Part shown: positions 18,827-54,379 of the stretch, piece after piece
How positions within the stretch are numbered: the stretch's first letter is position 1
How the letters are laid out: each line of letters opens with the position of its first letter
Origin: an uncultured bacterium
GTDB lineage: Bacteria; Eisenbacteria; RBG-16-71-46; CAIMUX01; WJJG01
Reading direction: 5' to 3'
Assembly: GCA_964573295.1 (NCBI GenBank)
Contig: CAZNJE010000002.1
Location: 31,351-95,350, forward strand
DNA length: 64,000 nt
Position numbers and translations under genes: made by a program
The notes under the pieces: generated by a model
Told to the model about the DNA's origin: nothing
The model's input: only the letters and a program-made list of their open reading frames with translations
The model's database searches: none

Positions 18827-21496
18827 CTACTCCACCACCACGATCCGGCGGGTCATCTCTTGCCCCGAGGCCTGCGCACGGATGAAATAGATACCCGTCG
18901 GCACCGCATGACCCCGCTGGTCGCGTCCATCCCAATTGATGGCCGTCTCGCCCCCGTCGAGCACGCCCAGCAGAAGGGTCCGCACGCGCCGGCCGGCGGC
19001 ATCGAATAGCTCGACCCGCGCCTCGTTCGCCGAAGGCATGCGCAGCCGCAGCGTGGTTTCCCCCGAAGTCAGCGAGGGTTCGGGCCGGCTCAGGTGCAAG
19101 CGTCCTCCCGCCAGAACATCCGGCACGCCCTGCGAGCTGCTCAGAAGATACTCCACGGTGTTCTCGAGAAGCTGGCCGGCCAGGGCGCCATCGGTGAGCG
19201 CATCGTAGTCGATGGCCAGGAACACGATCTGCCCCTCGCCGCGACCGGGCATGTCATAGACCAGGATGCCGGCACCATCCGGATAGCTGCTCGTGCCGTA
19301 GACCACCGTGGCGTCGGCCAGTGGCGAGGCCGCGTCCTGATCGCCGAAGTAGTCGTAGGTCACATCCAGCGTCGACGGCAGCGCGTTTGGCAAGGTGGCC
19401 AGCGGATGGTCGCTCTGGCTCGTCCGCAGCACGAGGTCTCCGGCGTTGTCGGTGTGGTAGTCGGATAGATGCAGCACCTCGCTCGCGATCTCGGGGTAAC
19501 CCGGACTCGAGAGCGCATCGTAGGCCACCTCGCCGCCCTCGACGACCAGCTTGCCGCCGCCGGCCACGTAGCTGAGCATGGCTTCCCGGCGTCCTTCCAT
19601 CCGCAAGGGGTTCTTGTACGAGCCTGCGCTCCAGAACACGAGGTCGTAGCCGCCCCAGGTAGCCGGCTGAGTCGTGACGATCGTCTCGCGCGTCGCGCGG
19701 TAACCGAGCGCGGTTAGATCCTCGGTCACGATATTCGTGGGGTTCTCGTCGGAGACGACCAGAATCTCGGCCCTCGCGGGAGGCAGCGCGAAGTCGAGCG
19801 TCTGGTTGCCGCTCACCGTCTGGGTCTCGGTGACCGACACGTGACCGGGTGCGCTCGCCACGATCTCGTAGGTCCCCGCCGGTACTTCGGCGGTGTACTG
19901 GGCCGTGGTCTCATCGGCTTCCACCTGAAGGAACAGCTCCCCGGTGTCACTCCGGTAGACCGCCACCATGGCACCGGTGAGCGGCTGACCCGTCCCGGCC
20001 TGGTTCACGACGCCCGAGACATCGTACCAGGAACCGGCACGCTGAAGATGCACATCGTGGACCGTCGAGACGCCCTCGCTCACGGCGAGCGGCGACGAGG
20101 TGTAGGGCTGGTAGCCGTAGGACTCGATCTCCAGCGTGTAGGTGCCCGGCTCGAGCATGCGGTGGTAGAAGCCGCCGTGCGCATCGTTGTAGATTGCTTT
20201 GCCGATTTCGCCCACGTCGATCGTCGCTGGTACGGGGTTGCCGGTAGCAGCGTCGGTGATCACGCCCTCGATGCCGTTGCGCGCTTGGGCCAGCAGCCAC
20301 AGCATGGCGTCGCGATTCTCGTCCCAGAAGCTGGGCAGCTGATAGGCCGGCGGCCACTTGACGTTGCTGAGCTCAATACAGAAATGGAGTTCGTTGCGCC
20401 AGTTGTACGCCCAATCCTGGAAGCCGCCGTGGATGACGTACCATTCCCAGCCGATCGTGACGCCCTGGTAGAATTGGCCGCTGTTCCACATCGGCGGGTT
20501 GCGATACGAGTAGCCCAGCGCCAGGTTGTGTATCTGGTCGTGGTCGGGCGTGTATTGCCCGTAGAAGCAGTCCCACGGATAGTTCACCACCAGCGCCCCG
20601 CCGTGGTAGTTGACGCCGATCGTGAAGTTGTAGTCGTACTGCCAGATCATCATGTGCTGGACTTCGGTGGGCCGGCCCTCGGGGTCATCGTTGGGATCCT
20701 CGAGCGGGTCGGGGAAATTGCGGTTCAGGTCGTAACCGCTCGCGTTGTAGCGCGTGCCGGCGGCGTTGCCGTCCGGGTTGTGCAGGGGGCAGATCCAAAT
20801 CTCGAGATCGTCGACCAGGGCGGTCAGGTCCGGGTCGATGCCGTAGTTCTCCACCAAGAGCCGGATCAAATAGACGCACATCTCCATGCCCACCACCTCA
20901 TCACCATGGATCGTGGCGGTGTACTTGAAGGCCGGCTCGGGCTCATCCTCGGTCACGTTGTCCGAGAGCTTGAGCATCCACAGCTCCCGACCCTCCTCCG
21001 ACTGCCCGATCGATGTGAGCATCGCGATATCGGGATGGTCGCTGGCGATCTGCTGCAATTCCGCCGTCAGGGACTCGTAGGTGTGATAGTCCTCACGCCC
21101 CGGGGCGCGCAGGCCGGCGTCGACATCAGCCTTGAACTGCAGGAAGGCCCTACGCGCCTGGTTCGGAATGGCCTGGATCCGGTAGCCCGCCGACTCGAGA
21201 TCGGCGAAGGCGGCGTCATCGACGTAGGCCGTCACCCGCGCCCCGTCGAACTGATCGATATCGATCTCCCCAGCCTCGAGGGCCGACAACTCGAAGGGCG
21301 TGGCCACCTCGATCTGGACCGGGAAACGTCCCGTAAAGGGACAGCGATCCGCCTCGGTCGGCAAAGAGCCCTCGGAGGGAACCGCCTCGGCCAGGGCGAT
21401 CGTCACGGCTCCCCATCCCGTGAACAGAAGCAAGCAGGCCAGCGCGGTTGCGAGGTGCTGGATTGCGTTCGGGAGCCATCGGGCCATTCGGCGCAT
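18827..21496 (-). CDS. M14-family zinc carboxypeptidase with carboxypeptidase-regulatory-like and T9SS-type C-terminal sorting domains
   Basis: Signal peptide, HGDEVVG / NPDG M14 motifs, C-terminal ...TTLRLRMP...VELFDAAGRRVRTL...GIYFIRA tail. AGGAGG SD. Confidence 0.85.
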   Translation of the reverse strand: MRRMARWLPNAIQHLATALACLLLFTGWGAVTIALAEAVPSEGSLPTEADRCPFTGRFPVQIEVATPFELSALEAGEIDIDQFDGARVTAYVDDAAFADLESAGYRIQAIPNQARRAFLQFKADVDAGLRAPGREDYHTYESLTAELQQIASDHPDIAMLTSIGQSEEGRELWMLKLSDNVTEDEPEPAFKYTATIHGDEVVGMEMCVYLIRLLVENYGIDPDLTALVDDLEIWICPLHNPDGNAAGTRYNASGYDLNRNFPDPLEDPNDDPEGRPTEVQHMMIWQYDYNFTIGVNYHGGALVVNYPWDCFYGQYTPDHDQIHNLALGYSYRNPPMWNSGQFYQGVTIGWEWYVIHGGFQDWAYNWRNELHFCIELSNVKWPPAYQLPSFWDENRDAMLWLLAQARNGIEGVITDAATGNPVPATIDVGEIGKAIYNDAHGGFYHRMLEPGTYTLEIESYGYQPYTSSPLAVSEGVSTVHDVHLQRAGSWYDVSGVVNQAGTGQPLTGAMVAVYRSDTGELFLQVEADETTAQYTAEVPAGTYEIVASAPGHVSVTETQTVSGNQTLDFALPPARAEILVVSDENPTNIVTEDLTALGYRATRETIVTTQPATWGGYDLVFWSAGSYKNPLRMEGRREAMLSYVAGGGKLVVEGGEVAYDALSSPGYPEIASEVLHLSDYHTDNAGDLVLRTSQSDHPLATLPNALPSTLDVTYDYFGDQDAASPLADATVVYGTSSYPDGAGILVYDMPGRGEGQIVFLAIDYDALTDGALAGQLLENTVEYLLSSSQGVPDVLAGGRLHLSRPEPSLTSGETTLRLRMPSANEARVELFDAAGRRVRTLLLGVLDGGETAINWDGRDQRGHAVPTGIYFIRAQASGQEMTRRIVVVE

Positions 21497-25353: not shown

Positions 25354-26802
25354 ATGCACAAGTTTCCGTTCGTTGGGCGGTCGTTCCTGTTCGTTGGCCA
25401 GCCACCCTCGTTCGTTAGGCAGTCGCTCCCCTTTGCTGGACGGCCGCTCCCCTTTGCTGGACAGTCGCTCCCCTTTGCTGGACAGTCGCTCCTGTTCGCC
25501 ACGTTCAGGCTCCTCCTGGCCGGGTTCTCGCTCTGTGCTCTTCTTCCCTCCTCGGCCTTGGCGGAGCACTGGGTGGTCGATCCATCCGGCGGCGGTGACT
25601 TCACCCACATTCAACCCGCCATCGAAGCGGCAACGCCCGGGGACGAGATCGAGGTTCTGGCAGGCACGTATGCGGAGGAACTCGATTACCTGGGCAAGGA
25701 TTTGCGCGTCTTCGCCAGCCAAGGTCCAGATGTCACCGTACTCACCCCTCCCGTCCCGACCACTCGCTCGACCCATCTGGTCACGTTCGCATCGGGTGAG
25801 GGCTCGGCAGCCAGTCTCGAAGGCTTCACGCTCAGCGCTTCCTCGGGGCCTCTCGTCGCGAGCCTGGGCGGTACGGGCGGCGGGGCGATCGGCTGCTACG
25901 GTAGCGAGCCGCAGATCCTCGGCTGCGTCTTCCTGCAGAACGAAGCGGATTACGGCGGGGGCATTCTGCTGATCGACGCCAACCCAACCATCTCGGGATG
26001 CACGTTCCTCGAGAATCTCGCGCATATCAGCGGTTCGGCGATCGCGGGGCCCAATTCGGCGCCGAGCATTCTCGAATGCCGTTTCGAGGACAATGAGGCC
26101 GTGACCGGTTCGGGAACGGTGCAGCTAGCCCTTCCCTGCGACATCGTGGCCTGCGAGTTCATCAACAACCGCGCGCACAGCGGCGGCGCGATCAGCTGTC
26201 CGTACGATACCGCCAACCTCCTCATCAAAGGGTGCACCTTCGAATCGAACCAGTCGACCGTCACCCATGGCGGCGCCATCCGCATTCACGAGGCCAGCCC
26301 AACGATCGAGTCCTGCACCTTCGTCGACAACCGGGCGGCTCTCGACGGCGGCGCGATCTTCACAGTCGATGGCGGTTCGGCCGAGCTGCGCCACTGCACC
26401 TTCTACTTCAACCTTGCCCAGCGCAGCGGAGGCCACCTGGCGGTGCTCAACGGGGCCACCCCCCTGATCGAGAACTGCATTCTCTCCGAGGCCCTGGGCG
26501 GCTACGGCGTCTTCGTCGACAGCGCCCTGCCGGCGTTCGTGTGCAACGCGTTCTGGAACAATCACCCCCTGAACTTCCTGAACTTCGAGGATCCCTCAGG
26601 CACCGACGGCAACTTCACGGCCGATCCTCTGTTCTGTGATGTGTTCAGCTACGACTTCACAATCGATACAAACTCACCCTGCGCCGAAGAAAACAACCCG
26701 CTCTGCGGCCAGATCGGGCGCTTCGGCGTGGCGTGTGGCGGCGTCCGCTGCCATTGCATCAGCTGGGGACACTTGCGAACGCGGTTCGATCCGCGGCCCT
26801 AG
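25354..26802 (+). CDS. Secreted right-handed parallel beta-helix repeat protein with N-terminal heptapeptide repeat array
   Basis: ATG at 25354, 5 nt after GAGGGGGG. N-terminus F[VA]G[RQ]xLP x6 encoded by 21-bp tandem repeats, then a hydrophobic signal/anchor. Many PbH1-like repeats (GGAI.., C.F..N, SGG) follow. Confidence 0.7.
   Translation: MHKFPFVGRSFLFVGQPPSFVRQSLPFAGRPLPFAGQSLPFAGQSLLFATFRLLLAGFSLCALLPSSALAEHWVVDPSGGGDFTHIQPAIEAATPGDEIEVLAGTYAEELDYLGKDLRVFASQGPDVTVLTPPVPTTRSTHLVTFASGEGSAASLEGFTLSASSGPLVASLGGTGGGAIGCYGSEPQILGCVFLQNEADYGGGILLIDANPTISGCTFLENLAHISGSAIAGPNSAPSILECRFEDNEAVTGSGTVQLALPCDIVACEFINNRAHSGGAISCPYDTANLLIKGCTFESNQSTVTHGGAIRIHEASPTIESCTFVDNRAALDGGAIFTVDGGSAELRHCTFYFNLAQRSGGHLAVLNGATPLIENCILSEALGGYGVFVDSALPAFVCNAFWNNHPLNFLNFEDPSGTDGNFTADPLFCDVFSYDFTIDTNSPCAEENNPLCGQIGRFGVACGGVRCHCISWGHLRTRFDPRP
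25365..25500 (+). repeat. 21-bp tandem repeat x6 (in frame, N-terminus of the beta-helix protein)
   Basis: gttcgttgggcggtcgttcct / gttcgttggccagccaccctc / gttcgttaggcagtcgctccc / ctttgctggacggccgctccc / ctttgctggacagtcgctccc x2, seen directly in the sequence. Confidence 0.9.
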
Positions 26803-27075
26803 CCCAAACGCGGCCCTAGCCCAGACGCGGCTCGAGCCCAGACGCGGCTCGAGCCTGAACGCAGCTTCGGCACCAACGGTCGAGGAGACGAAATGCACCC
26901 AGCCCTCCATACCTACCAATCGGCACACCAACACCCCGGTCGCCGCGCGCCGGCATGCATCTCGGTCCACAGAACCACGCCAACCACGCGAACCGGACCG
27001 ACCTCCCCAGCCGCAGCGACCGCGCGAAACGGTGCGACTACGCGAAACGGTGCGACTACGCGAAACGGTGCGCCC

Positions 27076-27786
27076 ATGCCGGCCGGGACGCCCTTGAGAG
27101 CCCGAGCGCTCCCAGGAATCAGGTCACTTCCGCGAACCACGTCGTTCCTCGGGACCTTGGTACCTCTGGTTCCCTTGGTTCCCTTGGTTCCTTTGGCTCC
27201 TTTGGCACTCTTGACTGTTCTCACTCTCACGGCCCTCTGGACGCCGAACGCCACGGCTCAGGTCGAGGCCGCCGACCCGGTCACCGAAAGCGCATCCGCC
27301 CAGGTCGAGGCCGCCGACCCGGTCACCGAAAGCGCATCCGAAGCCGGAGGTGTCAGCAGCACCGCGGCCGATTCTCTGCTCATCCAGGTTCGTAAAGTGA
27401 TTGAGCCCAGCGACGGCACGACAGTGCTCCATTTCCACGCCACCGAGCGTTGCGCCGACTGCATCCTGATCGAGACCTACGCCCGAGACGCGATCGAAGA
27501 GCAGTTCGTCTCAGAGCTCGAGGATGGTCAGCTAACATTCCGGCTGATCAACATCGACGAGCCACGAAACGCTCCTTTGCGCGAGTACTACGACATCGAC
27601 GACACCATGGTCGTGCTGACCCGCTGGCGAGACGGCCAGCAGCTCGAGTGGATGGCCCTTTGGGAGGTCTGGGACTATGTCGAGGATCCTCTCTCGATGG
27701 GCTTGTATGTCACCGACGAAGTATTCAGCTATGTCGAGAAGGACGAGCGCGAGCGGGAGGAAGCCGCCGTTTCGGGTAATGACTAG
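27076..27786 (+). CDS. Secreted hypothetical protein (repeat-containing N-terminus)
   Basis: ATG at 27076. Signal peptide with (LVP)x3 from a 9-bp repeat, AQVEAADPVTESAS x2 from a 42-bp repeat, then a ~150-aa acidic domain (HFHATERCADCILIE...). No family recognised. Confidence 0.5.
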   Translation: MPAGTPLRARALPGIRSLPRTTSFLGTLVPLVPLVPLVPLAPLALLTVLTLTALWTPNATAQVEAADPVTESASAQVEAADPVTESASEAGGVSSTAADSLLIQVRKVIEPSDGTTVLHFHATERCADCILIETYARDAIEEQFVSELEDGQLTFRLINIDEPRNAPLREYYDIDDTMVVLTRWRDGQQLEWMALWEVWDYVEDPLSMGLYVTDEVFSYVEKDEREREEAAVSGND

Positions 27787-28608: not shown

Positions 28609-29796
28609 ATCAACGAGTTATCATTGGATTCCGGAATCAAGGCCTAAGTCCTTGCAAGACAAAGAGTTTCGCTGTTTGCCCTTGTCAAATTTGGAGTTCG
28701 CTAAAGTATGTCGTCGTCCAGAAGCGCGACCTCAGGCTGGACAGGGCTGAACCGTGCCGGCCAGCGGCTGACCCATGCCAGCCCGCAGATAACCCGTGCC
28801 AGCCCGCAGATAACCCGTGCCAGCCCGCAGATGGCCGCTTAGCGCCAGCCCCTTTCCCGAAATGGGATGGTGGGCGGGAGCACTCGATCCACGACAGGAG
28901 GCCGCGGAGAATATCAACGCACCCTGGGCTTGTCTCACACGAATCTCAGACGAATCATCGAATTCGGTCTTGGCTTGGCGATTTTGCCAAATTACAATCT
29001 TCCCAATCTTCTTGTTGTTTCCGATCACGCCGTCGAGGAAGCTCCTCATGGATTCCGTACATAGCGCACAGCTCGAGGCACGCGCCCAGACTCTGAAGGC
29101 GATGGCTCGCCCCTTGTGGCCTTGCTCTACGCGGGAGCGGCCGTCAGCGTCCTCGCCATCATTCTCACCGCACGGATCCTGGGCCCGGAGTTCGCCGTCG
29201 AAATCCCATCCGCCCCGGGCGGTGAAGCGCACAGATAGAGAAGGCCGGAGCGATCCCGCCTCCTCCGACAACTCCACCCGGAGCAAGAGCACGAGTCGAT
29301 GGAGTATCTCTTCACAGAGTTGACCAATGCAGTCCAGGGCTCACTGGCCACCGCGTTCTTGGCCGCGCAGGTGGCCGCGCAGGTAGCCGCGCAGGTGGCC
29401 GCGCAGGTGGCCGCGCAGATGGCCGCGTTCACCTCGGGCGTTCTCAGCGTCCTCCTCAGCCCCTGCCGCCTTGCCAGCATCCCGGTCATCGCAGCCCATG
29501 ACAACCGGCTCTATGGCGGAGCCCTGCTGTTGCTCTGCGGTGTGGGGCACCGCGCGGTGATCGTCGCCGCCGGGATCTCGGCCGGCTGGGTGCACCGCGA
29601 CATGAACTGGAACGAGGCCTCCCGAGGCGGCCTCTGGTTGCGCTGCGCGAGGTTCGCTGTCGGGCTCATGGGGACTGGTGCCCACTCTCGGGCCGGATGG
29701 GCTGGTGCCCAGCAATGGACCCGAAGACAAGAGTTCTGAGAACCTGGTTCACACTGCTCGATCGCATGGTCGGGTTGGAAGGAGAACAAGTTCACC

Positions 29797-31002
29797 ATGG
29801 CAACGAAAGCTTGCATCACCAAGGAGCCCACAGGGCTCGGCTTCTTCGAACGCTACCTGACCCTGTGGGTGTTGCTCTGCATCGGCCTGGGGATCGTCTT
29901 GGGCCGGCTCGCGCCGGGGATAGCGCGCACGCTTGATGGTCTCGCGATCTACAGCGACGGCGCGCCGGTCGTCTCGATTCCCATCGCGATCTGCCTCTTC
30001 TTCATGATGTATCCAATCATGGTCAAGATCGACTTCGGGGAGGTGCTGCGTGCGGGGCGCAATGCGAAGCCGGTGACCCTGACGTTGGTCATCAACTGGC
30101 TCGTCAAGCCATTCACGATGTACGCCATCGCGTTCCTGTTCCTGGGGGTGCTCTTCCGGCAGTTCATCGGCCCCGAGGCGGTCGATCACGTCAAGATGCC
30201 CTTGGGACTGGACCTGGCCGTGGGCGAGATCTACGGGTCGGGCCGGGTCGTCCTCGTCGACGGCGTCAAGATGCTGGCCGTACCGCTGTGGCGCAGCTAT
30301 CTGGCCGGATGCCTTCTGCTGGGCATCGCCCCCTGCACGGCGATGGTGCTGGTCTGGGGCCACTTGGCCCGCGGCAACGCCGCCCACACCCTCGTCATGG
30401 TGGCGATCAACTCGCTGACCATGCTCGTTCTCTACGGCGTGCTGGGAGGATTCTTGCTGGGCGTGGGCCGCCTGCCCGTTCCTTGGCAGGCACTGCTGCT
30501 CTCGATCGGCGTCTACGTCGCCCTGCCCTTGGTGGCCGGCTATCTGTCACGCCGATGGGTCGTCTCCGCCAAGGGCGAGGCCTGGTTCCAGGAGAAGTTC
30601 CTGCACATCTTGACCCCCATCACGATCATTGCGCTCCTGCTCACCCTGGTGTTGCTCTTCTCCTTCAAGGGCGATGTCATCCTGGGAAATCCGCTGACCA
30701 TCGTCTGGATCGCGATTCCGCTCTTCTTGCAGACGGTCCTGATCTTCGCCGTGACCTACGCCCTGGCCAAGGTCCTGGGCCTGAGCTATCCGGATGCGGC
30801 CCCGTCGGCGATGATCGGCGCCTCGAACCACTTCGAGGTCGCCATCGCCACCGCGACGATGCTCTTCGGGTTGTCATCGGGCGCCGCGCTCGCTACGGTC
30901 GTGGGCGTCCTGATCGAGGTGCCCGTCATGCTCATGCTGGTGCGCATCTGTCTGCGGACGGCCGGTTGGTTTCGCCATGGGCCGGAGGGGGAAACGCCAT
31001 GA
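29797..31002 (+). CDS. acr3: ACR3-family arsenite efflux transporter
   Basis: 10-TM profile with near full-length similarity to Acr3/ArsB-type proteins ([13 protein letters not shown]..., GIAPCTAMV...). Confidence 0.9.
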
Positions 31003-31415: not shown

Positions 31416-31455
31416 CGCTGGCGCGGTTGCGGGGCACAATGAGATGCGCTGACGT

Positions 31456-31574
31456 CGCACGATCGGATGCCCCACGATCGGATGCCCCACGATCGGGTGC
31501 CCCACGATCGGATGCCGCACCATCGGATGCCGCACGATCCGACGTCGTATGATCGGTCGTAGCACGATCGGCAC
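31456..31574. repeat. 15-bp tandem repeat x8 (c[ac]cacgatcggatgc) in the intergenic region upstream of the cydA-like operon
   Basis: Read directly from the sequence. Copies degenerate toward the 3' end. Confidence 0.9.
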
Positions 31575-31636: not shown

Positions 31637-31816
31637 AAGCGCCACCATATTTCAGTTGCGAGCTCCGGCGGCATCCCTATCATGGCCGCCAGTTCCGGCT
31701 ACCCATCCTCAGTGTGCGTCCGCGTCACAGCGCATGCTGCCAGCCACACCCGCAACGGGCCGGGACTCATCGTCAAACCCGTGGTCGTCGACCTCTAGCC
31801 GATCGAGGAATTGCCC

Positions 31817-32881
31817 ATGGATCCCAGCGTGCTGATCCCGATCCCCGACTCGATCCCTGTTCATTGGGGTTGGTTCAAGTTCCTTCTGATCCTGACCTTC
31901 GTGCTCCACCTGCTCCTCATGAACCTCATGCTGGGCGGTGGGCTGCTGGCGCTGGGGCGCCGGCTGCGCGGGCAGGCCCCGACGGAGGAAGCTCGCAGTC
32001 TCCCGGTCTTGATCGCCCTCACGATCAACCTCGGGATCCCGCCGCTGCTCTTCGTGCAGGTGCTCTTCGGCCAGTTCCTCTACAGCAGCTCGGTGCTGAT
32101 GGCCGTGGGGTGGATCCTCGTGATCCCGGTGTTGATCGCCGCCTACTACGCGGCCTATGGGTTCGTGCACGGCGAGAAAGGGGGCGGAACGGCCGGCACG
32201 GTGTGGCTTTTCATCTCGACCCTCTTGATGCTCTTCATCGGGTTCATGCTGTCGAACAACATGACCTTGATGCTGCGGCCCGAGCGTTGGAACGTCTACT
32301 TTGCCCATCCAGGGGGCACCTATCTCAATCTGTCCGAACCGACGCTGATCCCGCGCTACCTGCATTTCGTCATGGCCTCGGTGGCGGTGGCGGGCCTGGG
32401 CCGGGCCATCTACTACCGCGTCCGCGGACCGCGGGCTGGAGAAGACGCCGGGAGCGAGGCCCAACGCGAGAAAGAGGTTCGAGGCGGATTGCGCATCTTC
32501 GGTTGGAGCACGCTTGCACAGATGGCGATCGGGCTCGTCTTCTGGATGCTCTTGCCCGAGCGGATCAACCGCCTCTTCATGGGCACCAGCCTGGTGCACA
32601 CATTCCACCTGTGGATCGGGGTGCTGCTGGCGGCACTGGCCGTCCACTTCGCCTTCCGCGGGCGGGTGTGGCTGACGACAGTCCTGACGCTGGTGACCAT
32701 CGTCTTGATGGTGGTGGTCCGCGACATGGTGCGCACCGCCTACCTGGAGCCGGTCTTCCATCCGGGCGATCTGACGGTCGTTCCGCAGGCAAATTCCCTG
32801 GTCTTCTTCCTGATCTCACTGGTCGTGGTCACCGGTGTCCTCTACTGGATGCTGCGCCAGGCGTGGAAGGCCAAGGCCTGA
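31817..32881 (+). CDS. Cytochrome bd subunit-I (CydA)-like membrane protein, short form lacking Q-loop (CydA'-like)
   Basis: 8-9 TM helices. N-terminal FVLHLLLMNLMLGGGLLALGRRLRG parallels CydA helix-1 heme-ligand His context. ATG at 31817 after CGAGGAA (TTG at 31811 is also possible). Confidence 0.7.
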   Translation: MDPSVLIPIPDSIPVHWGWFKFLLILTFVLHLLLMNLMLGGGLLALGRRLRGQAPTEEARSLPVLIALTINLGIPPLLFVQVLFGQFLYSSSVLMAVGWILVIPVLIAAYYAAYGFVHGEKGGGTAGTVWLFISTLLMLFIGFMLSNNMTLMLRPERWNVYFAHPGGTYLNLSEPTLIPRYLHFVMASVAVAGLGRAIYYRVRGPRAGEDAGSEAQREKEVRGGLRIFGWSTLAQMAIGLVFWMLLPERINRLFMGTSLVHTFHLWIGVLLAALAVHFAFRGRVWLTTVLTLVTIVLMVVVRDMVRTAYLEPVFHPGDLTVVPQANSLVFFLISLVVVTGVLYWMLRQAWKAKA

Positions 32882-32907
32882 GTCCCTAGAACGCACGAGG
32901 TGATGCT

Positions 32908-35595
32908 GTGAACTATCCCTTTTGGCAGGTCCCGGCCATCGGCGGCGGACTGCTCATTGCCATCATTGCCATCCTGCACGTCTACATCGCCCATCTGGCG
33001 GTCGGCGGCGGACTGTTCCTGGTATTGACCGAGCGCAAGGCGCGCCGGGAGCAGGACGAGGGGCTTCTGGCCTACGTCAAGAAGCACACCCGGTTCTTCC
33101 TGCTGCTCACGATGGTCTTCGGCGGGGTCACCGGCGTGGGCATCTGGTTCATCATCTCCCTGGTCCATCCCCAGGGCACCTCGGCCCTGATTCACAACTT
33201 CGTCTTCGGATGGGCCATCGAGTGGACTTTCTTCATCGGTGAAATCGTCGCGCTTCTGCTCTACTACTACCTGTGGGACCGCCTCGCGCCGAAGGTGCAC
33301 ATGGCCCTCGGCTGGCTCTACTTCATCTTCGCCTGGCTGAGCCTCTTCGTCATCAATGGCATCCTGACCTTCATGCTGACCCCCGGACGCTGGTCGGCCA
33401 CGCTGGGGTTCTGGGACGGCTTCTTCAATCCCACCTTCTGGCCGTCCCTTCTCTTCCGCACCGGCATGGCGCTCACGATCGCCGGGATCTTCGGCCTGGT
33501 GACCGCCGCGTTCTCGAAAGAGCCATACCGGCAGAAGGTGATCCGCTATTGCGGCACCTGGATCCTGGTGCCCTTCGCGCTCACGATCGTGGGAGGCCTG
33601 TGGTACCTGGGGAGCATTCCAGCGCAGCCGCTCGAGAATATCCAGATTCGTAACCCCGAAGTGATCCCCTTCACGCACGTCTTCCTGTGGACGAGCGCCA
33701 TCGTCTTCGTGGGCGGGTTGATCGCCTTGCTGCGCCTGTCGCCGGGACTGCAACGGCTGACCGCGGTCGTCGTCATGCTGATCGGTCTCAGCTGGATCGG
33801 CGGATTCGAGTACGTACGCGAGATCGCGCGCAAGCCTTACGTCATCTTCGGCTACATGTACTCGAGCGGGGTCACGCCGGCGCAGGCCGAACAGATGAGC
33901 GAGACCGGATTCCTGTCGCAGGCGAAGTGGGCAGTCCACAAGGAGGTGACGCCCGAGAACCGGATCGAGGCCGGCAAGGAGCTTCTGACCCACCAATGCC
34001 TGATCTGTCACACGGTGGGCGGTTACAACGACGTCCTGAAACAGACCGCGAAACACAATCTGATCGGCATGACCGCCCAGCTCAGCGGCCAGGGCAAGAT
34101 CAACACCTACATGCCGCCCTTCCTGGGCACCGAGGCGGAGAAGGATGCGCTCGCCGGCTACCTCATCGAGGATCTCCATGGCAAGCAGGAGGATCCTTTC
34201 CCGGCCATCGACGTGGCGCGCAAGGAATTCACGGTGCCCGAGTTCGATCCGGAGAATGACGACTATGTCCTCCTCGCCTGGAACGACCTGGGCATGCACT
34301 GCCTCAGTGACAGCGATCCGTGGTGGGTGATCCTGCCCCCGGCGAACTCGCTGTGGGCACAGCTGGTGCGCCGCGGGCCCAGCCCCGAGTTCGTCACCGA
34401 GGGCGTGGAGCTTCGCTATGAGGTCGAGACGGGCTTCGAGCACCCCGAGCGTCACGTCGAGTTCTGGGACCACGTCGCCTCGAACTTCGGCGCCACCCTC
34501 GAGCCGCCGACCGGCCTGGCCGGCAACGCCATGAGCGGCCACATGGAGCCCAAGGAGGGCGTGGCCGCGTTCGTGGCCGAACTGGTGCCGGTCGTGCCCT
34601 ACCCAGACAGCGGCATCTACGACCCCTACCCCACCTTCACGATCGAGGCCTACGACACCGCGACCGGCGAGCGGATCGCCCAGACGCGCATGGTGGCGCC
34701 CACCAGCTCCGAGATGGGTTGCAAAAATTGCCACGGCGGCGAGTGGAGGTTCCAGAATCAGGCCGGCTTCACGGCCGAGACCAGCCGCGACATCCTCCGC
34801 GTGCACGATCGGATGAGCCGCACGAACCTGCTGGCCGAGGCCGAGGCGGGTAGTCCCAAGATCTGCGGCGCCTGCCATCAGGACCTGGCCCTGGGCACCG
34901 AGGGAGATCCCGAGCTACTGAACCTCCCCACCGCCATTCACGGCTTCCACGCCAACTACATGCCCGACATGGAGGAGACCGCATGCCTCCTGTGCCATCC
35001 ATCCCGTTGGGACGGGGCCACCCGTTGCCTGCGAGGCCGGCACGGATCGCAGGTAGGCCTCACCTGCGTCGAATGCCACGGCACCCTGGAGGACCACGCG
35101 CTCTCGCTGGTGAAGCATGAGCACGAGGCGGGCAAGAAGGGCGCAGCCCGGCTCATGGCGCACCTGGAGCCCGATGCGGTGGCTTCGGTGGAGGAGATCA
35201 ACGGCCGGATGCCCTGGATCCACGAGCCCGACTGCCTGAATTGCCATCGCGCCTTCGAGCTACCCGACAGCGTCAAGGCCACCATCACCCACCAGGCCTT
35301 CCTCGACGCCGATGTGATCATGCAGTTCAACGCCTTCAACGAATGGACCACCGGCGGCGACCAGCTCTACCGCAACCGCACCGACTCGCGGGGCGTGATG
35401 TGCATCGCCTGTCACGGATCGCCGCATGCGATCTATCCGGCCGAGAACGCGATGGCCGAGGATCTGGATAACATTCCGCCCTTGCAGTACCAGGGCATCG
35501 CGGGCACCATCGGAACCGAGACAAGCTGCACAGTTTGCCACACGGTCCCGCGGACCCAGGAAGGCCATCACCGCCGCATCCTCTACCGTGATTAG
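32908..35595 (+). CDS. CydA-like quinol-binding membrane domain fused to a periplasmic octaheme c-type cytochrome domain
   Basis: Residues 1-310 align to CydA landmarks (ILHVYIAH helix-1 His; AIEWTFFIGE; LWDRLAPKVHM versus E. coli GWDRLGKVQHM). The C-terminal ~540 aa carry eight CxxCH motifs (CLICH, CKNCH, CGACH, CLLCH, CVECH, CLNCH, CIACH, CTVCH). GTG start with CGAGG SD. Confidence 0.85.
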   Translation: MNYPFWQVPAIGGGLLIAIIAILHVYIAHLAVGGGLFLVLTERKARREQDEGLLAYVKKHTRFFLLLTMVFGGVTGVGIWFIISLVHPQGTSALIHNFVFGWAIEWTFFIGEIVALLLYYYLWDRLAPKVHMALGWLYFIFAWLSLFVINGILTFMLTPGRWSATLGFWDGFFNPTFWPSLLFRTGMALTIAGIFGLVTAAFSKEPYRQKVIRYCGTWILVPFALTIVGGLWYLGSIPAQPLENIQIRNPEVIPFTHVFLWTSAIVFVGGLIALLRLSPGLQRLTAVVVMLIGLSWIGGFEYVREIARKPYVIFGYMYSSGVTPAQAEQMSETGFLSQAKWAVHKEVTPENRIEAGKELLTHQCLICHTVGGYNDVLKQTAKHNLIGMTAQLSGQGKINTYMPPFLGTEAEKDALAGYLIEDLHGKQEDPFPAIDVARKEFTVPEFDPENDDYVLLAWNDLGMHCLSDSDPWWVILPPANSLWAQLVRRGPSPEFVTEGVELRYEVETGFEHPERHVEFWDHVASNFGATLEPPTGLAGNAMSGHMEPKEGVAAFVAELVPVVPYPDSGIYDPYPTFTIEAYDTATGERIAQTRMVAPTSSEMGCKNCHGGEWRFQNQAGFTAETSRDILRVHDRMSRTNLLAEAEAGSPKICGACHQDLALGTEGDPELLNLPTAIHGFHANYMPDMEETACLLCHPSRWDGATRCLRGRHGSQVGLTCVECHGTLEDHALSLVKHEHEAGKKGAARLMAHLEPDAVASVEEINGRMPWIHEPDCLNCHRAFELPDSVKATITHQAFLDADVIMQFNAFNEWTTGGDQLYRNRTDSRGVMCIACHGSPHAIYPAENAMAEDLDNIPPLQYQGIAGTIGTETSCTVCHTVPRTQEGHHRRILYRD

Positions 35596-35606: not shown

Positions 35607-36098
35607 ATGAGCGAACAGAAGTCGACGCACGCGATGGAAGGCGCCGCCGCGAGGTTTGAACAGGTCGAGGGCTTGATCTACGTACTCGCCGGGATTCTGC
35701 TGGCGGTCGTAGCCGTCGTCATCCTCGGCCATGCGGTCTACATGTTCATCGACCACATCATGAAGGGAGACTTCGGCAGCGCGGTGATCACGATGCTCGA
35801 GGAGCTGCTCCTGGGACTCATGGCCGCCGAGCTCCTCTACACGGTCACCGTCTCGCTCCGTACGCACAGCCTCTCGGCCGAACCGTTTCTGATCGTGGGG
35901 ATGATCGCCGCGGTGCGCCGAATCTTGACGATCTCGGTCGAGGCGGCCCACCTGTTCGCCAAGGATCCGGAGAAATTCAAGCTGGCGCTCTATGAGATCG
36001 GCCTGCTGACCGTGGCGGTCTTGATCCTGGTCATCTCCGTCTACGTGCTGCGCAAGGCGCGCCAGACCTCGCCCGGCGATCTGAGACCGGCCGGCTGA
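35607..36098 (+). CDS. PsiE-like (phosphate-starvation-inducible E family) small membrane protein
   Basis: 163 aa, 4 TM, helix pattern resembling PsiE. ATG follows GAGGGA, 12 nt after the cytochrome stop. Confidence 0.5.
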   Translation: MSEQKSTHAMEGAAARFEQVEGLIYVLAGILLAVVAVVILGHAVYMFIDHIMKGDFGSAVITMLEELLLGLMAAELLYTVTVSLRTHSLSAEPFLIVGMIAAVRRILTISVEAAHLFAKDPEKFKLALYEIGLLTVAVLILVISVYVLRKARQTSPGDLRPAG

Positions 36099-36108
36099 TT
36101 CGCACGCC

Positions 36109-37158
36109 ATGGCAGCTCGCGAGGTGGACGTGCAAGCCGGGCAACACCGGCTCCGACTGGACCGATTCCTCCGCGAGGCCTGCCCGGAGCTCAGCCACAA
36201 GGACATCGAGCGGCTGCTACGGACCGGGGCGGTCGAGATCTTCTCGGGATCCTCATCCGGAGTTTCGGAGCAGGGGCACGAGGAGCGGGGCCGAGTCGGT
36301 AACCACCGAACCTATGTGAAGCGGGGTGATCGGGTGCGCATCCGCGACCACCCGCAGGACGCAAAGACCGGTTCCGAACAGCCGGCGGCCCCCCCACGCA
36401 TCCTCGAGCGCTCAGCGCACCTTCTCGTCGTCGGCAAGCCACCCGGCATGCCGACCGTGCCGGTAGCCAGCGAGACGAAGGCCGATGGAAAGAAGGCCGA
36501 CAGGGCGAAGGCCGACAGGGCGAAGGCCGACAGGGCGAAGGCCGGCGCTCGGACGAGTCTCCTCGAGTGGGTTTCCAACGAACTGGCTGGTGAGGAGCCT
36601 CGACTTCATCCGGGCGTCCTCCATCGTCTGGATCAGGCCACCTCGGGGATCCTGCTCTTCTCGCTCAGCCCTACCGGACACCGCGTGGTGACGAGGCTTC
36701 TTCGCCAGCGAACGCTCGAGAAGCGATACCTGGGTGTGATCCGCGGCCAGCTATCACCAGCAACCGGAAGCATAGAACTGCCGCTGATGCGGGATGCATC
36801 GGGGCGGATGCGCGCCGCTGCCGCCGGCGCCCCCAGCCGGACCGGCTACCGCACGATCGAGTCGGGGAATGGGTGGAGCCTCCTCGAACTGGATCTCCAC
36901 ACCGGCCGCTTCCATCAGCTCCGGGCTCATCTGGCCGCGCTCCGCCATCCCCTCCTGGGGGATGACCGCTACGGCAGTCCCACACCCGAACTCACGCCGC
37001 CGCGCTTGTGGCTCCATGCCGCCCGGTTAGCGTTCCCACCCGAAGAGGCAAGGCGGCTTGGAGTACCTGCAACCCTGGTGTGCCCTCTCTGGCCGGATCT
37101 CGAGGCTCACCTTTCCACGTGCCTCCGTACCCACCCACGCGGCCGGGCCGGCAGCTGA
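36109..37158 (+). CDS. RluA-family 23S rRNA/tRNA pseudouridine synthase (S4 domain N-terminus)
   Basis: HRLDQATSGILLF catalytic motif, ...RFHQLRAHL. In-frame (KADRA)x3 insertion from a 15-bp repeat. Confidence 0.85.
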   Translation: MAAREVDVQAGQHRLRLDRFLREACPELSHKDIERLLRTGAVEIFSGSSSGVSEQGHEERGRVGNHRTYVKRGDRVRIRDHPQDAKTGSEQPAAPPRILERSAHLLVVGKPPGMPTVPVASETKADGKKADRAKADRAKADRAKAGARTSLLEWVSNELAGEEPRLHPGVLHRLDQATSGILLFSLSPTGHRVVTRLLRQRTLEKRYLGVIRGQLSPATGSIELPLMRDASGRMRAAAAGAPSRTGYRTIESGNGWSLLELDLHTGRFHQLRAHLAALRHPLLGDDRYGSPTPELTPPRLWLHAARLAFPPEEARRLGVPATLVCPLWPDLEAHLSTCLRTHPRGRAGS

Positions 37159-37219
37159 TCAGATCCCGGCCCGCGTACCCACCCGCGCGGCCGGGCCGGC
37201 AGCTGATCAGGTCCCGGCC
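37126..37219. terminator. Duplicated ~48-bp element with GGCCGGG...CCCGGCC stem-loop between convergent rluA-like and TDT transporter genes
   Basis: Two direct copies (37126-37171 and 37174-37219), each containing a 7-bp inverted repeat flanking a 17-nt loop. Positioned at the 3' ends of both convergent genes. Confidence 0.45.
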
Positions 37220-38229
37220 TCGGCAGCAGCCGTCGCCGCTGGCTTCGGCTCGCCCTCCGGTACGCAGATCTCACCAGCGAAGGCCGCGCGAATCGTGCGG
37301 ATGAGAACGACCACGACGACCACCGTCGCGAATGCCAACATCGCCATGCTGGCGAAGCGCATCACGAGGAAGCCGGTCAAATGGTAGTAGAGCATCGTCG
37401 CGATACTGATGGCCGCCAGGGGGAAGGTGTAGGCCCACCAGGACACGAAGTAGGGCGTCTTGCGGAAGCGGTTGGCCATGGTGAGCAGCAGCAAGAAGGT
37501 GAAGAGCGCCATCATGTAGAGCACCCGGTGGAAGTCGCCGAAGCTGCCGGTCAGCTTGTAGAGGGAGATGAATCCGACCGCCGGTGGGGCCAACATGATC
37601 GCCAGGGTGGGAATGAGCTTCTTCGGCAAGGGATCATGAAAGAAGACGCGGTAGAGCACGATCGCGAACAGCGCGACCCAGTAGAACAGTCCACCACTGA
37701 AGAAGAACCAGGACAGTTCCTTGTTGGCGATGTCAACCCCGGCGACCGGCACCAGGATGTTGCCCACGGCGGGGATGAACCACGCCGGGTTGAAGCTGTG
37801 CACGTGAAGGTCCCGCGTGATCCATTCGTGCAGGATTCGCATCGTGTAGATCAGATGGAGGGGCATGCCGATCCACCACAGCACAGCGGCGAGGCCCGGC
37901 TGCAGATGCATGAATCCAATGGCGAGCAGCAGCAAGGAAATTGAGATCGCCGGAAAGAAGTTTACTTTGACGTCGTGATTGAACTCTTCGGCCACCCGAT
38001 GAGGGTAGCGGCTCAGTTTCGCCACATAGAGCAGGGTCAGGATCACGAACCAGACGGCCGCCACATAAAGGATGACCTGACCGATCACGCCGGGCCAGTC
38101 CAGAATGGCCGCGGCGCGAAGGTAGGCGATCGCCAGGCCGCACAGGCCCATGACCGAGCCGTATAGGGTGATGGGGAAGTGGGCCAACCGTGAAGCCCCC
38201 ATATTGGGGGAAGATGAATGCGCGTTCAT
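37207..38229 (-). CDS. TDT-family (TehA / C4-dicarboxylate / SLAC1-like) anion transporter
   Basis: 10-TM profile and similarity to the tellurite-resistance/dicarboxylate transporter family. ATG at 38229; upstream ORF-track residues lack support. Confidence 0.8.
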   Translation of the reverse strand: MNAHSSSPNMGASRLAHFPITLYGSVMGLCGLAIAYLRAAAILDWPGVIGQVILYVAAVWFVILTLLYVAKLSRYPHRVAEEFNHDVKVNFFPAISISLLLLAIGFMHLQPGLAAVLWWIGMPLHLIYTMRILHEWITRDLHVHSFNPAWFIPAVGNILVPVAGVDIANKELSWFFFSGGLFYWVALFAIVLYRVFFHDPLPKKLIPTLAIMLAPPAVGFISLYKLTGSFGDFHRVLYMMALFTFLLLLTMANRFRKTPYFVSWWAYTFPLAAISIATMLYYHLTGFLVMRFASMAMLAFATVVVVVVLIRTIRAAFAGEICVPEGEPKPAATAAAEAGT

Positions 38230-38525
38230 ACCAGTCCCTTCGTCCTGCTCAATCCGTCTCGTGTTTTCACCGCTCTTTGGCCAGGCGACGACCCGATGCA
38301 AAACCGTAGCAAGACGCTGAAGTTCCCCGCACAGACAGGCTGCGACGATGAAATCGCGATGATACCATCCGGATACGTGCGCCGGGATGGCGGGACCACA
38401 GCTATGCTCGGGACAGCGGCCTCGGAACAGCATCTGACGGCAAGCGAGACGAGGCCGACCTCGCGCGCTAACGTCTTGCTATGCAATGATCTACGAAAAA
38501 CACGGAAGCGTCGGGGAGGAGGGTC

Positions 38526-39458
38526 TTGGATCAGCAATCCAGAGCCTATCTGCACGGACTGGGCGCCGTGCTGGCGTGGTCGACCGTGGCATCGGCCTTC
38601 AAGCTGACGCTGCGGGAGCTGACGCCGGTGGCCATGCTCTTCTACGCGTCCCTGACCTCCCTGCTCATCCTGCTGGCCATCTTGACCTGGCAGGGCCGTC
38701 TGGGGGTCTTGAGGCAGATCCGGGGTCGCGAGTGGCTCGCCTATGCCGGGCTCGGGTTCCTCAACCCGTTTCTCTACTACACGATCCTCTTCCGCGCCTA
38801 CCAGCTCCTGCCCGGCCAGGAGGCTCAGGCTCTCAATTACACCTGGGCCATCACGCTGGCGCTCTTGTCGATTCCGATTCTGAAGCAGCGTATCCGGCCC
38901 GCCAGCCTCGTGGCGCTCGTGATCAGCTTTGCGGGGGTCTGGGTCATCTCCACACGGGGGGACGTGTTCTCGACGCACTTCGCCGAGCCGGTGGGCGTGC
39001 TGCTGGCGGTGGGCAGTTCGGTCGTTTGGGCGCTCTTCTGGATCGGCAACGTGCGCGATCCTCGGGACGAGATCGTCAAGCTGGCCCTGTGTTTCGTCTT
39101 CGGTACCGCCTTCGTGGGCCTCTACGCCCTGGCAACCGGGGATCCCTTGGCGGTGCGGTGGCCGGGGGTCGCCGGGGCAATCTACGCCGGCCTCTTCGAG
39201 ATGGGTCTCACGTTCGTCCTGTGGCTCACGGCCCTGCGGCTCTCACGCACGACCGCGCAGGTAGGCAACCTCATCTTCCTGTCGCCCTTCATCTCACTGG
39301 TGCTGCTTCACTTCGTGGTCGGTGAGGAGATCTTCCGCTCCTCGATCGTGGGGCTGGTACTCATCCTCGCCGGCATCGCCCTGCAGCGGCGCACCGACCG
39401 GATCACTCGGCAAACCGCGCCAGTGAGCCAACCCGCCGCCGGCAGCTGTGATCCGTGA
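38526..39458 (+). CDS. EamA/DMT-family transporter
   Basis: Two EamA-like 5-TM halves. TTG start preceded by GGGGAGGAGGG. Confidence 0.8.
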   Translation: MDQQSRAYLHGLGAVLAWSTVASAFKLTLRELTPVAMLFYASLTSLLILLAILTWQGRLGVLRQIRGREWLAYAGLGFLNPFLYYTILFRAYQLLPGQEAQALNYTWAITLALLSIPILKQRIRPASLVALVISFAGVWVISTRGDVFSTHFAEPVGVLLAVGSSVVWALFWIGNVRDPRDEIVKLALCFVFGTAFVGLYALATGDPLAVRWPGVAGAIYAGLFEMGLTFVLWLTALRLSRTTAQVGNLIFLSPFISLVLLHFVVGEEIFRSSIVGLVLILAGIALQRRTDRITRQTAPVSQPAAGSCDP

Positions 39459-53657: not shown

Positions 53658-53950
53658 AGCTTTCCCCCCTCCGGCCTCGACCCTCCCTAGTGAGGGCCGG
53701 TGGGCACTCGGATACGTTCCACAATTATACCGCATCCGAGGGCCGTCCCCGCCGGTGACGCCACGGGAGTGGCGCATTCCACGCAAGACCTCCACTCCCG
53801 CAACCCCCTGGCGCGGAAATGTTTCCGTCCGTGAGGCTGAAGGCGGCCGGATGGAACGTCGTCTCAATGCGCGCCCTGGGCGTGGCTCTCCGGCTGCCCG
53901 TGGGGCCGGCGAGCGCCGCCCCCCAGGTGTCTCCTGGTGCCTGAGCGGTC

Positions 53951-54379
53951 GTGGCCGCGCAAGCCAAGAAGTTGCGGTGGCAGCCACCCGAACCACAGAA
54001 TCAACCCCAACCGGCCACTGGCAGCCCTTTGGGCAGCTGCGCGGATTGGAGCGATCAAGACACGGTGTACAAAGGAGACGAGGAGTTCGGACAACTCCGC
54101 GAACTGAGTCGGGCGTACACGATGGTGGTCAGCGATTCAGTTCGCGTGCAGAACCGGATCAAGAGCCTCTATCGTTCGCGAGGGATTCCTGCCATCGGCA
54201 AGGAGGTCTACGCGCCAGCGGCACGGGAGAAGTCGCTGCGGAAGCTTCCCGCGAAAACGCGCCCCCTGGCGGCGCTCCTTTACCAGGAACTTGACGGAGT
54301 GCGCGATCTGCAGAAGCGGTCGGAGAAGGAGATGCTCGCCGAAGCCCGCCAGCACAAGATCACCCACGTTCTGTGGTGA
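53951..54379 (+). pseudogene. IS110-family transposase remnant (central linker region only)
   Basis: 142-aa ORF resembling the region between the DEDD and Transposase_20 domains of IS110-family transposases (LRELSRAYTMVV..VRVQNRIKSLY...LRKLPAKTRPLAALLYQEL). It lacks both the catalytic N-terminus and the C-terminal domain. It sits at the edge of a lower-GC segment. Confidence 0.35.

Follow-up and report, generated by a model that had tools for sequence, protein, structure and literature searches.

Two adjacent open reading frames (ORFs), ORF1 and ORF2, in a 64,000-nucleotide stretch of DNA from an uncultured bacterium of the Eisenbacteria (contig CAZNJE010000002.1; the whole stretch is referred to as the window) were assigned from their sequences as an OR-C1b/OR-C1a pair, typical of a family that is already known. 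Within the cytochrome bd superfamily, Murali, Gennis and Hemp 2021 (10.1101/2021.01.16.426971; hereafter Murali et al.) distinguished qOR, OR-C and OR-N. In their description OR-C1a is a cydA homologue that has eight transmembrane (TM) helices, lacks a quinol site and ends in a periplasmic extension with heme c motifs, up to 8 of them in Desulfovibrionia, and it adjoins a paralogue, OR-C1b, with which it is expected to form one enzyme. All of the family-defining features were found in ORF1 and ORF2 and nothing essential differed, although the host does not belong to the Desulfovibrionia, the published 8-heme hosts, and a PsiE-like gene is appended. The architecture is neither rare nor new, and the locus is another, taxonomically distant, member of the family. 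What goes beyond the published description is that the 8-heme form is widespread outside Desulfovibrionia, that the OR-C1b sequences keep a histidine aligned to the H186 position, and that the periplasmic arm is predicted to run from a class-I c domain through a beta-sandwich to an MtrC-like heptaheme module, which is also found alone. The features that make up the pair are as follows.

31817..32881, plus strand: ORF1, OR-C1b-type subunit, 354 aa (356 aa from TTG 31811), about 9 TM helices, predicted cytochrome bd subunit fold
32908..33837, plus strand: ORF2 residues 1-310, membrane domain (OR-C1a), CydA-like, predicted 8 TM helices, N-out/C-out
33961..34164, plus strand: ORF2 residues 352-419, class-I (c6/cbb3 subunit III-like) monoheme cytochrome c, assigned by PF13442, profile matches in the PDB and conservation
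34195..34707, plus strand: ORF2 residues 430-600, heme-free beta-sandwich without a match in Pfam or NCBIfam
34708..35592, plus strand: ORF2 residues 601-895, heptaheme domain, passing PF14522 and PF14537 and scoring 29.1 bits with PF22113

The initial annotation of this DNA had described two adjacent CydA-type genes without CydB, the second fused to a periplasmic domain with eight CxxCH motifs, in a family noted by surveys and of no known function. This description held up: the coordinates were confirmed, ORF2 was recognised as CydA-type by PF01654 and ORF1 by profile and fold, and the family is the OR-C1 of Murali et al. No CydB (PF02322) and no further respiratory gene was found among the ORFs of the window. 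Our literature search found no purified or assayed OR-C member, later papers citing OR-C as a phylogenetic class only, and a search on the locus tags of cultured carriers returned nothing. ORF2 (32908-35595, plus strand, 895 aa) has a GTG start and a GAGGTG ribosome-binding site and begins after a 26 nt gap from the end of ORF1. ORF1 was listed from a TTG at 31811, but we favoured the ATG at 31817 (31817-32881, 354 aa) because of a GAGGA box 8 nt 5' of it, the N-termini of homologues and the gene prediction made independently for a metagenomic contig of identical sequence. The ORF1 residues H33, H185 and M300 are nevertheless numbered from TTG 31811 throughout.

The membrane domain of ORF2 was recognised by the Pfam CydA model, with residues 17-213 passing PF01654 at 43.6 bits against a gathering threshold (GA) of 26.2, although the match spans only profile positions 6-213 of 418. 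The CydA landmark strings AIEWTFFIGE and LWDRLAPKVHM, which the initial annotation had pointed to, are both present. Hydropathy and the positive-inside rule gave a CydA-like topology of eight TM helices, N-out and C-out, with Lys and Arg concentrated in loops 1, 3, 5 and 7. Because of this topology all eight CxxCH motifs of ORF2 are predicted to be periplasmic, and none falls in a cytoplasmic or TM segment. Alignment to E. coli CydA matched H24 to H19, E105 to E99, E112 to E107, H131 to H126 and S145 to S140, with a one-residue deletion between E105 and E112 as described for OR-C1a. Supplementary Table 6 of Murali et al. gives F183 at the H186 position of the OR-C1a reference WP_151150981, leaves the counterpart of M393 unlisted, and also lists H24, E105, E112, S145, H131, Y119, Y121, V77 and W80. 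The ORF2 landmark residues H24, V77, W80, E105, E112, Y119, Y121, H131, S145 and F183 are numbered identically to those of this reference.

Residue conservation in OR-C1a was counted over 74 phylogenetically broad sequences. H24, H29, E105, W106, E112, Y119, S145 and R184 were present in all 74, E301, R304, E305 and R308 in 73 (the remaining sequence being gapped there), and Y121 in 69. Phenylalanine stood at the heme b558 H186 position (F183) in 72/74. The ORF2 segment F-E-Y-x-R-E305-I-A-R-K-P-Y aligned with the canonical motif A-E-x-G-R-Q-P-W, in which the ligand of heme b595 lies (E445 in E. coli), and E305 is the tentative equivalent of that ligand. Histidines absent from canonical CydA were also found, H29 in every sequence and H60 and H96 in 72/74 each; in ORF2 they are encoded at 32992-32994 (H29), 33085-33087 (H60) and 33193-33195 (H96), next to H24 at 32977-32979. 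The periplasmic loop between TM6 and TM7, which is the Q-loop site in canonical CydA, has 19 residues in ORF2 versus a roughly 150-residue canonical Q-loop, and by topology and hydropathy neither ORF1 nor ORF2 has a Q-loop. A check of Q-loop and ligand conservation proposed with the initial annotation was thus divided in its outcome, H24 and the proton-channel residues being kept and the Q-loop and b558 ligands lost. The membrane module had been called quinol-reactive, and this was not supported, given the partial PF01654 match, the short loop, F183 in place of the b558 histidine and the definition of OR-C by an absent quinol site.

Compared with canonical CydAB (E. coli bd-I, G. thermodenitrificans; qOR1-3), the pair lacks the Q-loop, H186/M393 and a Pfam-recognisable CydB, and has instead a CydA paralogue as partner and eight covalent c-type hemes. 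Because the Q-loop, the b558 ligands and CydB are absent and eight c hemes are appended, quinol is unlikely to be the direct donor. The archaeal CydAA' (qOR4a/qOR4b, Caldivirga maquilingensis) resembles the pair in having two cydA paralogues without CydB and a second copy without the proton-channel glutamates. However, the 'a' subunit of CydAA' retains both the quinol site and b558 but lacks heme c, whereas the 'a' subunit here has lost both and carries the octaheme arm. The CydAA' and OR-C1 pairs are treated as independent duplications by Murali et al.

The partner subunit was more divergent. ORF1 had no Pfam or NCBIfam match, BLASTP similarity between ORF1 and ORF2 was not significant, and homology emerged only with family profiles. 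The ORF1-family profile aligned with the ORF2 membrane domain in hhalign over 275 columns (probability 96.6%, E 4.8e-10). An AlphaFold 2 model of ORF1 (predicted local distance difference test score, pLDDT, 87.1) had as its top Foldseek matches only cytochrome bd subunits (CydA/CydB chains), with TM-scores up to 0.66-0.70. Because of the family match and the predicted fold we take ORF1 to be a CydA homologue, at the profile and fold level only; hhalign of the ORF1 family against the single E. coli CydA and CydB sequences gave no meaningful alignment. ORF1 has no heme c motif and its family lacks both proton-channel glutamates, as expected for 'b'-type subunits (Murali et al.). H33 (H19 equivalent; 31907-31909) was kept in every family sequence covering the position, H185 (32363-32365) in 63/64 and M300 (32708-32710) in 65/65. 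H185 aligns to F183 of ORF2 and so to the position of the heme b558 ligand H186 of E. coli. Given H33, H185 and M300, ORF1 may have its own heme b.

In the C-terminal part of ORF2 CxxCH occurs exactly eight times, at residues 364, 605, 653, 693, 720, 776, 832 and 874. All eight motifs are invariant in 120 homologues and are therefore not there by chance. The first heme site, C364xxCH368, lies in the class-I cytochrome c domain, which when scanned alone passed PF13442 (residues 352-419, 27.9 bits versus GA 27) and in a profile search retrieved cytochrome c6 structures in the PDB. This domain has an invariant YM402PPF, of which M402 is the likely Met ligand of heme 1. The following beta-sandwich was confidently modelled and has the conserved motif W458-N-D-L-G-M-H464-C465...L-P-P-A-N480. 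The heme-free region of residues 420-600 matched nothing in Pfam or NCBIfam at E<=1, and its structural neighbours were only generic Ig or macroglobulin-like domains.

The heptaheme domain, with the CxxCH motifs from 605 to 874, matched only generic c7/c3 models, of which PF14522 and PF14537 passed. The MtrC/MtrF domain II/IV model PF22113 fell just below threshold for ORF2 (29.1 bits against GA 30), reached 35.3 bits for the relative P0242 and is a precomputed assignment for most family members, suggesting a distant likeness to MtrC/MtrF domain II/IV. The module profile reached MtrF (3pmq_A) with an E value of only 0.013. No solved structure matched the heptaheme module in profile or fold searches; the best PDB match of the module profile, 6i5b_A (E 7.5e-7), was rejected as a structural relative as the alignment was fragmented and confined to heme motifs. 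As in MtrC, the beta-domain of ORF2 precedes the heme part and the module has cell-surface relatives. Unlike MtrC, MtrF and OmcA, the module has seven hemes rather than five per unit, scores below the PF22113 gathering threshold, has a generic Ig-like beta-domain and is anchored to the inner membrane by the bd-type domain. The octahaem OTR/ONR/HAO kinship proposed earlier was not borne out, since no kinship to HAO, OTR, ONR, NrfA or MccA was detectable by profile or fold and no CxxCK or other catalytic signature was seen. MccSep, a pentaheme selenoprotein polysulfide reductase considered for its conserved cysteine, had no detectable similarity, and the epsilon-Hao/Otr of Caldithrix are unrelated proteins.

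Candidate distal ligands in the heptaheme domain are H633, H678, H681, H712, H840 and H888. H633, H678, H681, H840 and H888 are essentially universal across the module family, and position 712 alternates between His and Met in standalone module proteins, as expected for an axial ligand. These six candidate distal ligands are conserved module-wide, and the fused proteins conserve further histidines, which together allow for seven hexacoordinate electron-transfer hemes. In an alignment of 344 relatives R709 was near-invariant (340/344) and the non-heme cysteines C465 and C707 co-varied, both being present in 232 sequences, neither in 65 and one alone in 15. C465 (34300-34302) lies in WNDLGMHC beside H464, and C707 (35026-35028) in TxCLRGRH beside R709. 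The two cysteines probably form a disulfide that links the beta-sandwich with the heme domain, and they are possibly part of a joint functional site.

A sensitive search with ORF2 residues 420-895 returned 1141 representative proteins (clusters). Many of these module homologues have no bd domain and are proteins of 400-600 aa that bear a signal peptide, a lipobox or a single anchor. Larger homologues carry SLH, fn3/Ig, DUF11, CARDB, SusE or PASTA domains; relatives with domains such as SLH, Ig, DUF11 and CARDB indicate cell-surface proteins. Oleidesulfovibrio alaskensis has the periplasmic part alone, as a standalone protein of 559 aa (P0415, L082:6001-7680). Because of the many homologues without a bd domain and this standalone version, we view the module as a separate evolutionary unit grafted onto the bd core. 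The genomic contexts of the standalone homologues P0415 and P0248 were uninformative, and for the family of beta-sandwich plus heptaheme domain Pfam offers no model of the beta-domain and no structure has been solved.

More than 4000 proteins matched ORF2, the best 120 of them full-length at 51-100% identity, and in a scan of one genome per species at least 596 species carried the family. The closest named relative of ORF2 is a protein from a Candidatus Eisenbacteria metagenome-assembled genome (MAG), at 62% identity. Cultured carriers include Draconibacterium orientale, Pseudodesulfovibrio, Desulfobaculum and Hydrosulfovibrio ferrireducens, and carrier MAGs include many Desulfobacterota, Bacteroidales, Ignavibacteria, Calditrichia, Gemmatimonadales, Krumholzibacteriia and Eisenbacteria. 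Gene neighbourhoods were counted over 81 related loci. An ORF1 homologue lay directly 5' of the fusion in 77/81, and two of the four exceptions were contigs without upstream room. With de novo clusters no neighbour was conserved beyond the pair; the next clusters (histidine kinases, response regulators, sigma-54 activators, ABC/HlyD and MscS) each occurred in at most 9 loci. The conserved unit is the two-gene pair. A check for the same fusion and neighbourhood in relatives, proposed with the initial annotation, bore out the pair and no other neighbour. The survey likewise gave no linkage to genes for quinol dehydrogenases, hydrogenase or formate dehydrogenase, or sulfur or nitrogen metabolism.

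We tentatively favour, at slightly less than an even chance, a heme c-fed OR-C1 reductase in which the c hemes would be the electron entry and a bd-type diheme site would reduce O2 or another small oxidant. The eight c hemes would replace heme b558 and the Q-loop and would take electrons from periplasmic redox proteins, for example a cytochrome c or c3 pool, alternative complex III or a bc-type quinol oxidase. The electrons would pass to a buried b/d-type diheme site in ORF2, where O2 or another small oxidant (NO, H2O2) would be reduced with protons taken from the cytoplasm via E105/E112/S145. With periplasmic electrons and cytoplasmic protons the reaction would be electrogenic and would build proton motive force without pumping. 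ORF1 would stand in for CydB or CydA' as the pseudo-symmetric partner, and in the mostly anaerobic or microaerophilic hosts the enzyme could serve microoxic respiration or O2 detoxification. We favour electron entry via the c hemes over entry from quinol because the quinol parts are gone and the residues of the diheme site and the proton path are the most strictly conserved. It is further favoured because the 'b' subunit has no proton-path residues, no partner gene is needed and all hemes of the module can be relay hemes. Chitinophaga, Hydrotalea and Sphingobacterium are aerobic genera. OR-C forms with one or two hemes were described from them by Murali et al., who also put forward cytochrome c as the OR-C electron donor as a hypothesis.

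A number of observations speak against a c-fed reductase. Binding of heme d/b595 and O2 reduction by ORF2 are extrapolated from conserved residues, and the match of E305 to E445 comes from an HMMER segment of 7 bits only and has no counterpart in the table of Murali et al. The C1a-specific H29, H60 and H96 together with H33, H185 and M300 of C1b point to a cofactor set unlike that of canonical cytochrome bd, and the pair may have a cofactor complement other than its three hemes. Eight hemes and an Ig-like domain far exceed the electron-entry needs of an oxidase. The same beta-domain and heptaheme module occurs in secreted and cell-surface proteins, so that external electron output would fit at least equally, and metal or sulfur reducers are numerous among the hosts. 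It is the module that weighs most against a c-fed reductase, as its surface-located relatives and its closest model, MtrC/MtrF, would fit either outward flow or an inward flow like that of Qrc. A more elaborate proposal is a quinone-independent enzyme whose bd-type diheme site would be wired by the octaheme arm to periplasmic, outer-membrane or extracellular carriers, possibly with extra b hemes (H29/H96; H33/H185/M300) and a beta-domain site (H464, C465-C707, R709); we regard this as doubtful. If true, a quinone-independent OR-C1 would let anaerobes reduce O2 or another small oxidant with electrons from extracellular or periplasmic pools; alternatively, the OR-C1 pair would be an inner-membrane gateway of a new class, serving extracellular electron transfer.

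The direction of electron flow would be reversed if the pair oxidised menaquinol at a non-canonical site, possibly in ORF1, and sent electrons outward via the c hemes to a periplasmic or extracellular acceptor, as an inner-membrane quinol dehydrogenase analogous to CymA, ImcH or CbcL. This is in essence the quinol:periplasmic-acceptor oxidoreductase of the initial annotation. The likeness of the heptaheme module to MtrC/MtrF and its presence in cell-surface cytochromes would suit such an enzyme, as would hosts that include Geobacteraceae, Desulfuromusa, Hydrosulfovibrio ferrireducens, Ignavibacteria and Calditrichia, and no separate quinol dehydrogenase is encoded nearby. ORF1 also keeps H185 at the H186-equivalent position and the invariant M300. 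We nevertheless consider it unlikely. The Q-loop is absent from both subunits and the b558 ligands are missing in ORF2, and a quinol dehydrogenase releasing protons to the periplasm does not account for proton-channel glutamates on the cytoplasmic side and a diheme histidine that are so strictly conserved. The family also occurs in fermentative Bacteroidales, which to our knowledge are not associated with extracellular electron transfer.

The conserved cytoplasmic proton path would fit the reduction of quinone as well as that of O2, and the pair could be a cytochrome c:menaquinone oxidoreductase functionally resembling Qrc of sulfate reducers, with electrons passing from periplasmic hydrogenase or formate dehydrogenase through cytochrome c3 and the octaheme arm to menaquinone, cytoplasmic protons being taken up and the reaction being electrogenic. 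The family is abundant in Desulfobacterota, the bd fold is related to the NrfD-type quinone-interacting subunits, and in E. coli structures CydB holds a quinone at the place of the CydA hemes. This is very unlikely, however, as the heme-ligating H24 is invariant and E305 nearly so, arguing for hemes rather than quinone at the ORF2 site, and as the neighbourhood survey linked neither hydrogenase nor formate dehydrogenase genes to the pair. The family is also found in Bacteroidota, Ignavibacteriota and Gemmatimonadota, and we know of no association of these phyla with a cytochrome c3/hydrogenase periplasm.

Catalysis could also reside in the periplasmic module itself, for example on a sulfur or nitrogen oxyanion, with the distal side of a heme formed by M463-H464-C465, C707 and R709 and the bd-like pair acting only as a membrane electron source or sink. 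Sulfur-converting cytochromes, TsdA and SoxA among them, typically have hemes lined by cysteine or arginine, and MccSep has a heme-ligating cysteine. The co-variation of C465 with C707, the near-invariance of R709, a count of six universal distal ligands for seven hemes, which would leave one heme with variable or unusual ligation, and a beta-domain outside every known family all point the same way. We give this only a slim probability, since a co-varying periplasmic cysteine pair is most simply a structural disulfide, H464, H730 and H887/H888 of the fused family supply enough histidines for all-bis-His hemes, and neither similarity to a catalytic multiheme family nor linked sulfur or nitrogen metabolism genes were found.

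OR-C is one of the three families of the bd superfamily and the sole one defined by covalent c-type hemes, and it occurs in hundreds of species, among them sulfate reducers, Bacteroidota, Ignavibacteriota and related sediment bacteria. O2 reduction by a c-fed reductase drawing on the periplasmic cytochrome pool would, if true, alter models of oxygen tolerance and microoxic respiration in 'strict' anaerobes, and a pair running outward would give extracellular electron transfer chains a new point of entry at the inner membrane. It is the OR-C family that is of value; the locus itself is typical and has nothing unique beyond being a distant member.

The sequence around the pair adds two features.

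35607..36098, plus strand: PsiE-like small membrane protein, 163 aa (PF06146, 45.7 bits)
31656..31683, plus strand: sigma-70-like promoter match, by consensus only, inside the 396-nt spacer 5' of ORF1

The PsiE-like gene begins 11 nt past the ORF2 stop, in agreement with the initial annotation, which had described it as appended, although its link to the pair is weak. A PsiE-like gene was adjacent and on the same strand in 7/81 loci (L003, L016, L032, L038, L048 and L055 among them), in two gene orders. It lies 3' of the fusion in the clade of the window and 5' of the OR-C1b gene in Ignavibacteria, Calditrichia, Kapabacteria and Melioribacteraceae. Its product is a possible accessory subunit, the two orders in distant lineages hinting at a link. 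The sigma-70-like match was the sole one in the region (1 found versus 1.3 expected) and is not significant alone.

Upstream of ORF1 the 396-nt spacer is preceded by a yjbQ-like gene and then acr3, an ACR3 arsenite transporter gene (29797-31002, plus strand). On the other side lie a TehA/SLAC1-type anion channel gene (37207-38433, minus strand) and an EamA transporter gene (38526-39458, plus strand). The initial annotation had placed the pair beside acr3, but over the related loci acr3 occurred in 2/81 and TehA in 1/81, and acr3, TehA/SLAC1, EamA and RluA genes were not conserved beside the pair. Because ACR3, TehA and EamA stand beside OR-C1 in at most 3/81 loci, the arsenic or metalloid context is incidental, and the metalloid-resistance setting of the pair is coincidental.

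Part of the spacer, 31451-31571, is a 15-nt tandem repeat of about 8 copies with the consensus GACGTAGCACGATCG. Similar short tandem arrays were present at 26792-26866, 27023-27072, 27259-27340, 28752-28832, 29360-29427, 36492-36544 and 37126-37219, the one at 36492-36544 falling inside an RluA-like ORF. The remainder of the window holds housekeeping genes, chemoreceptors and secreted peptidases. Three large secreted peptidases (13377-16127, 18827-21496 and 50691-53996, all on the minus strand) are two M14 carboxypeptidases and one S8 subtilase, and all three have a FlgD_ig-type C-terminal domain, suggesting a common sorting or anchoring signal in this host.

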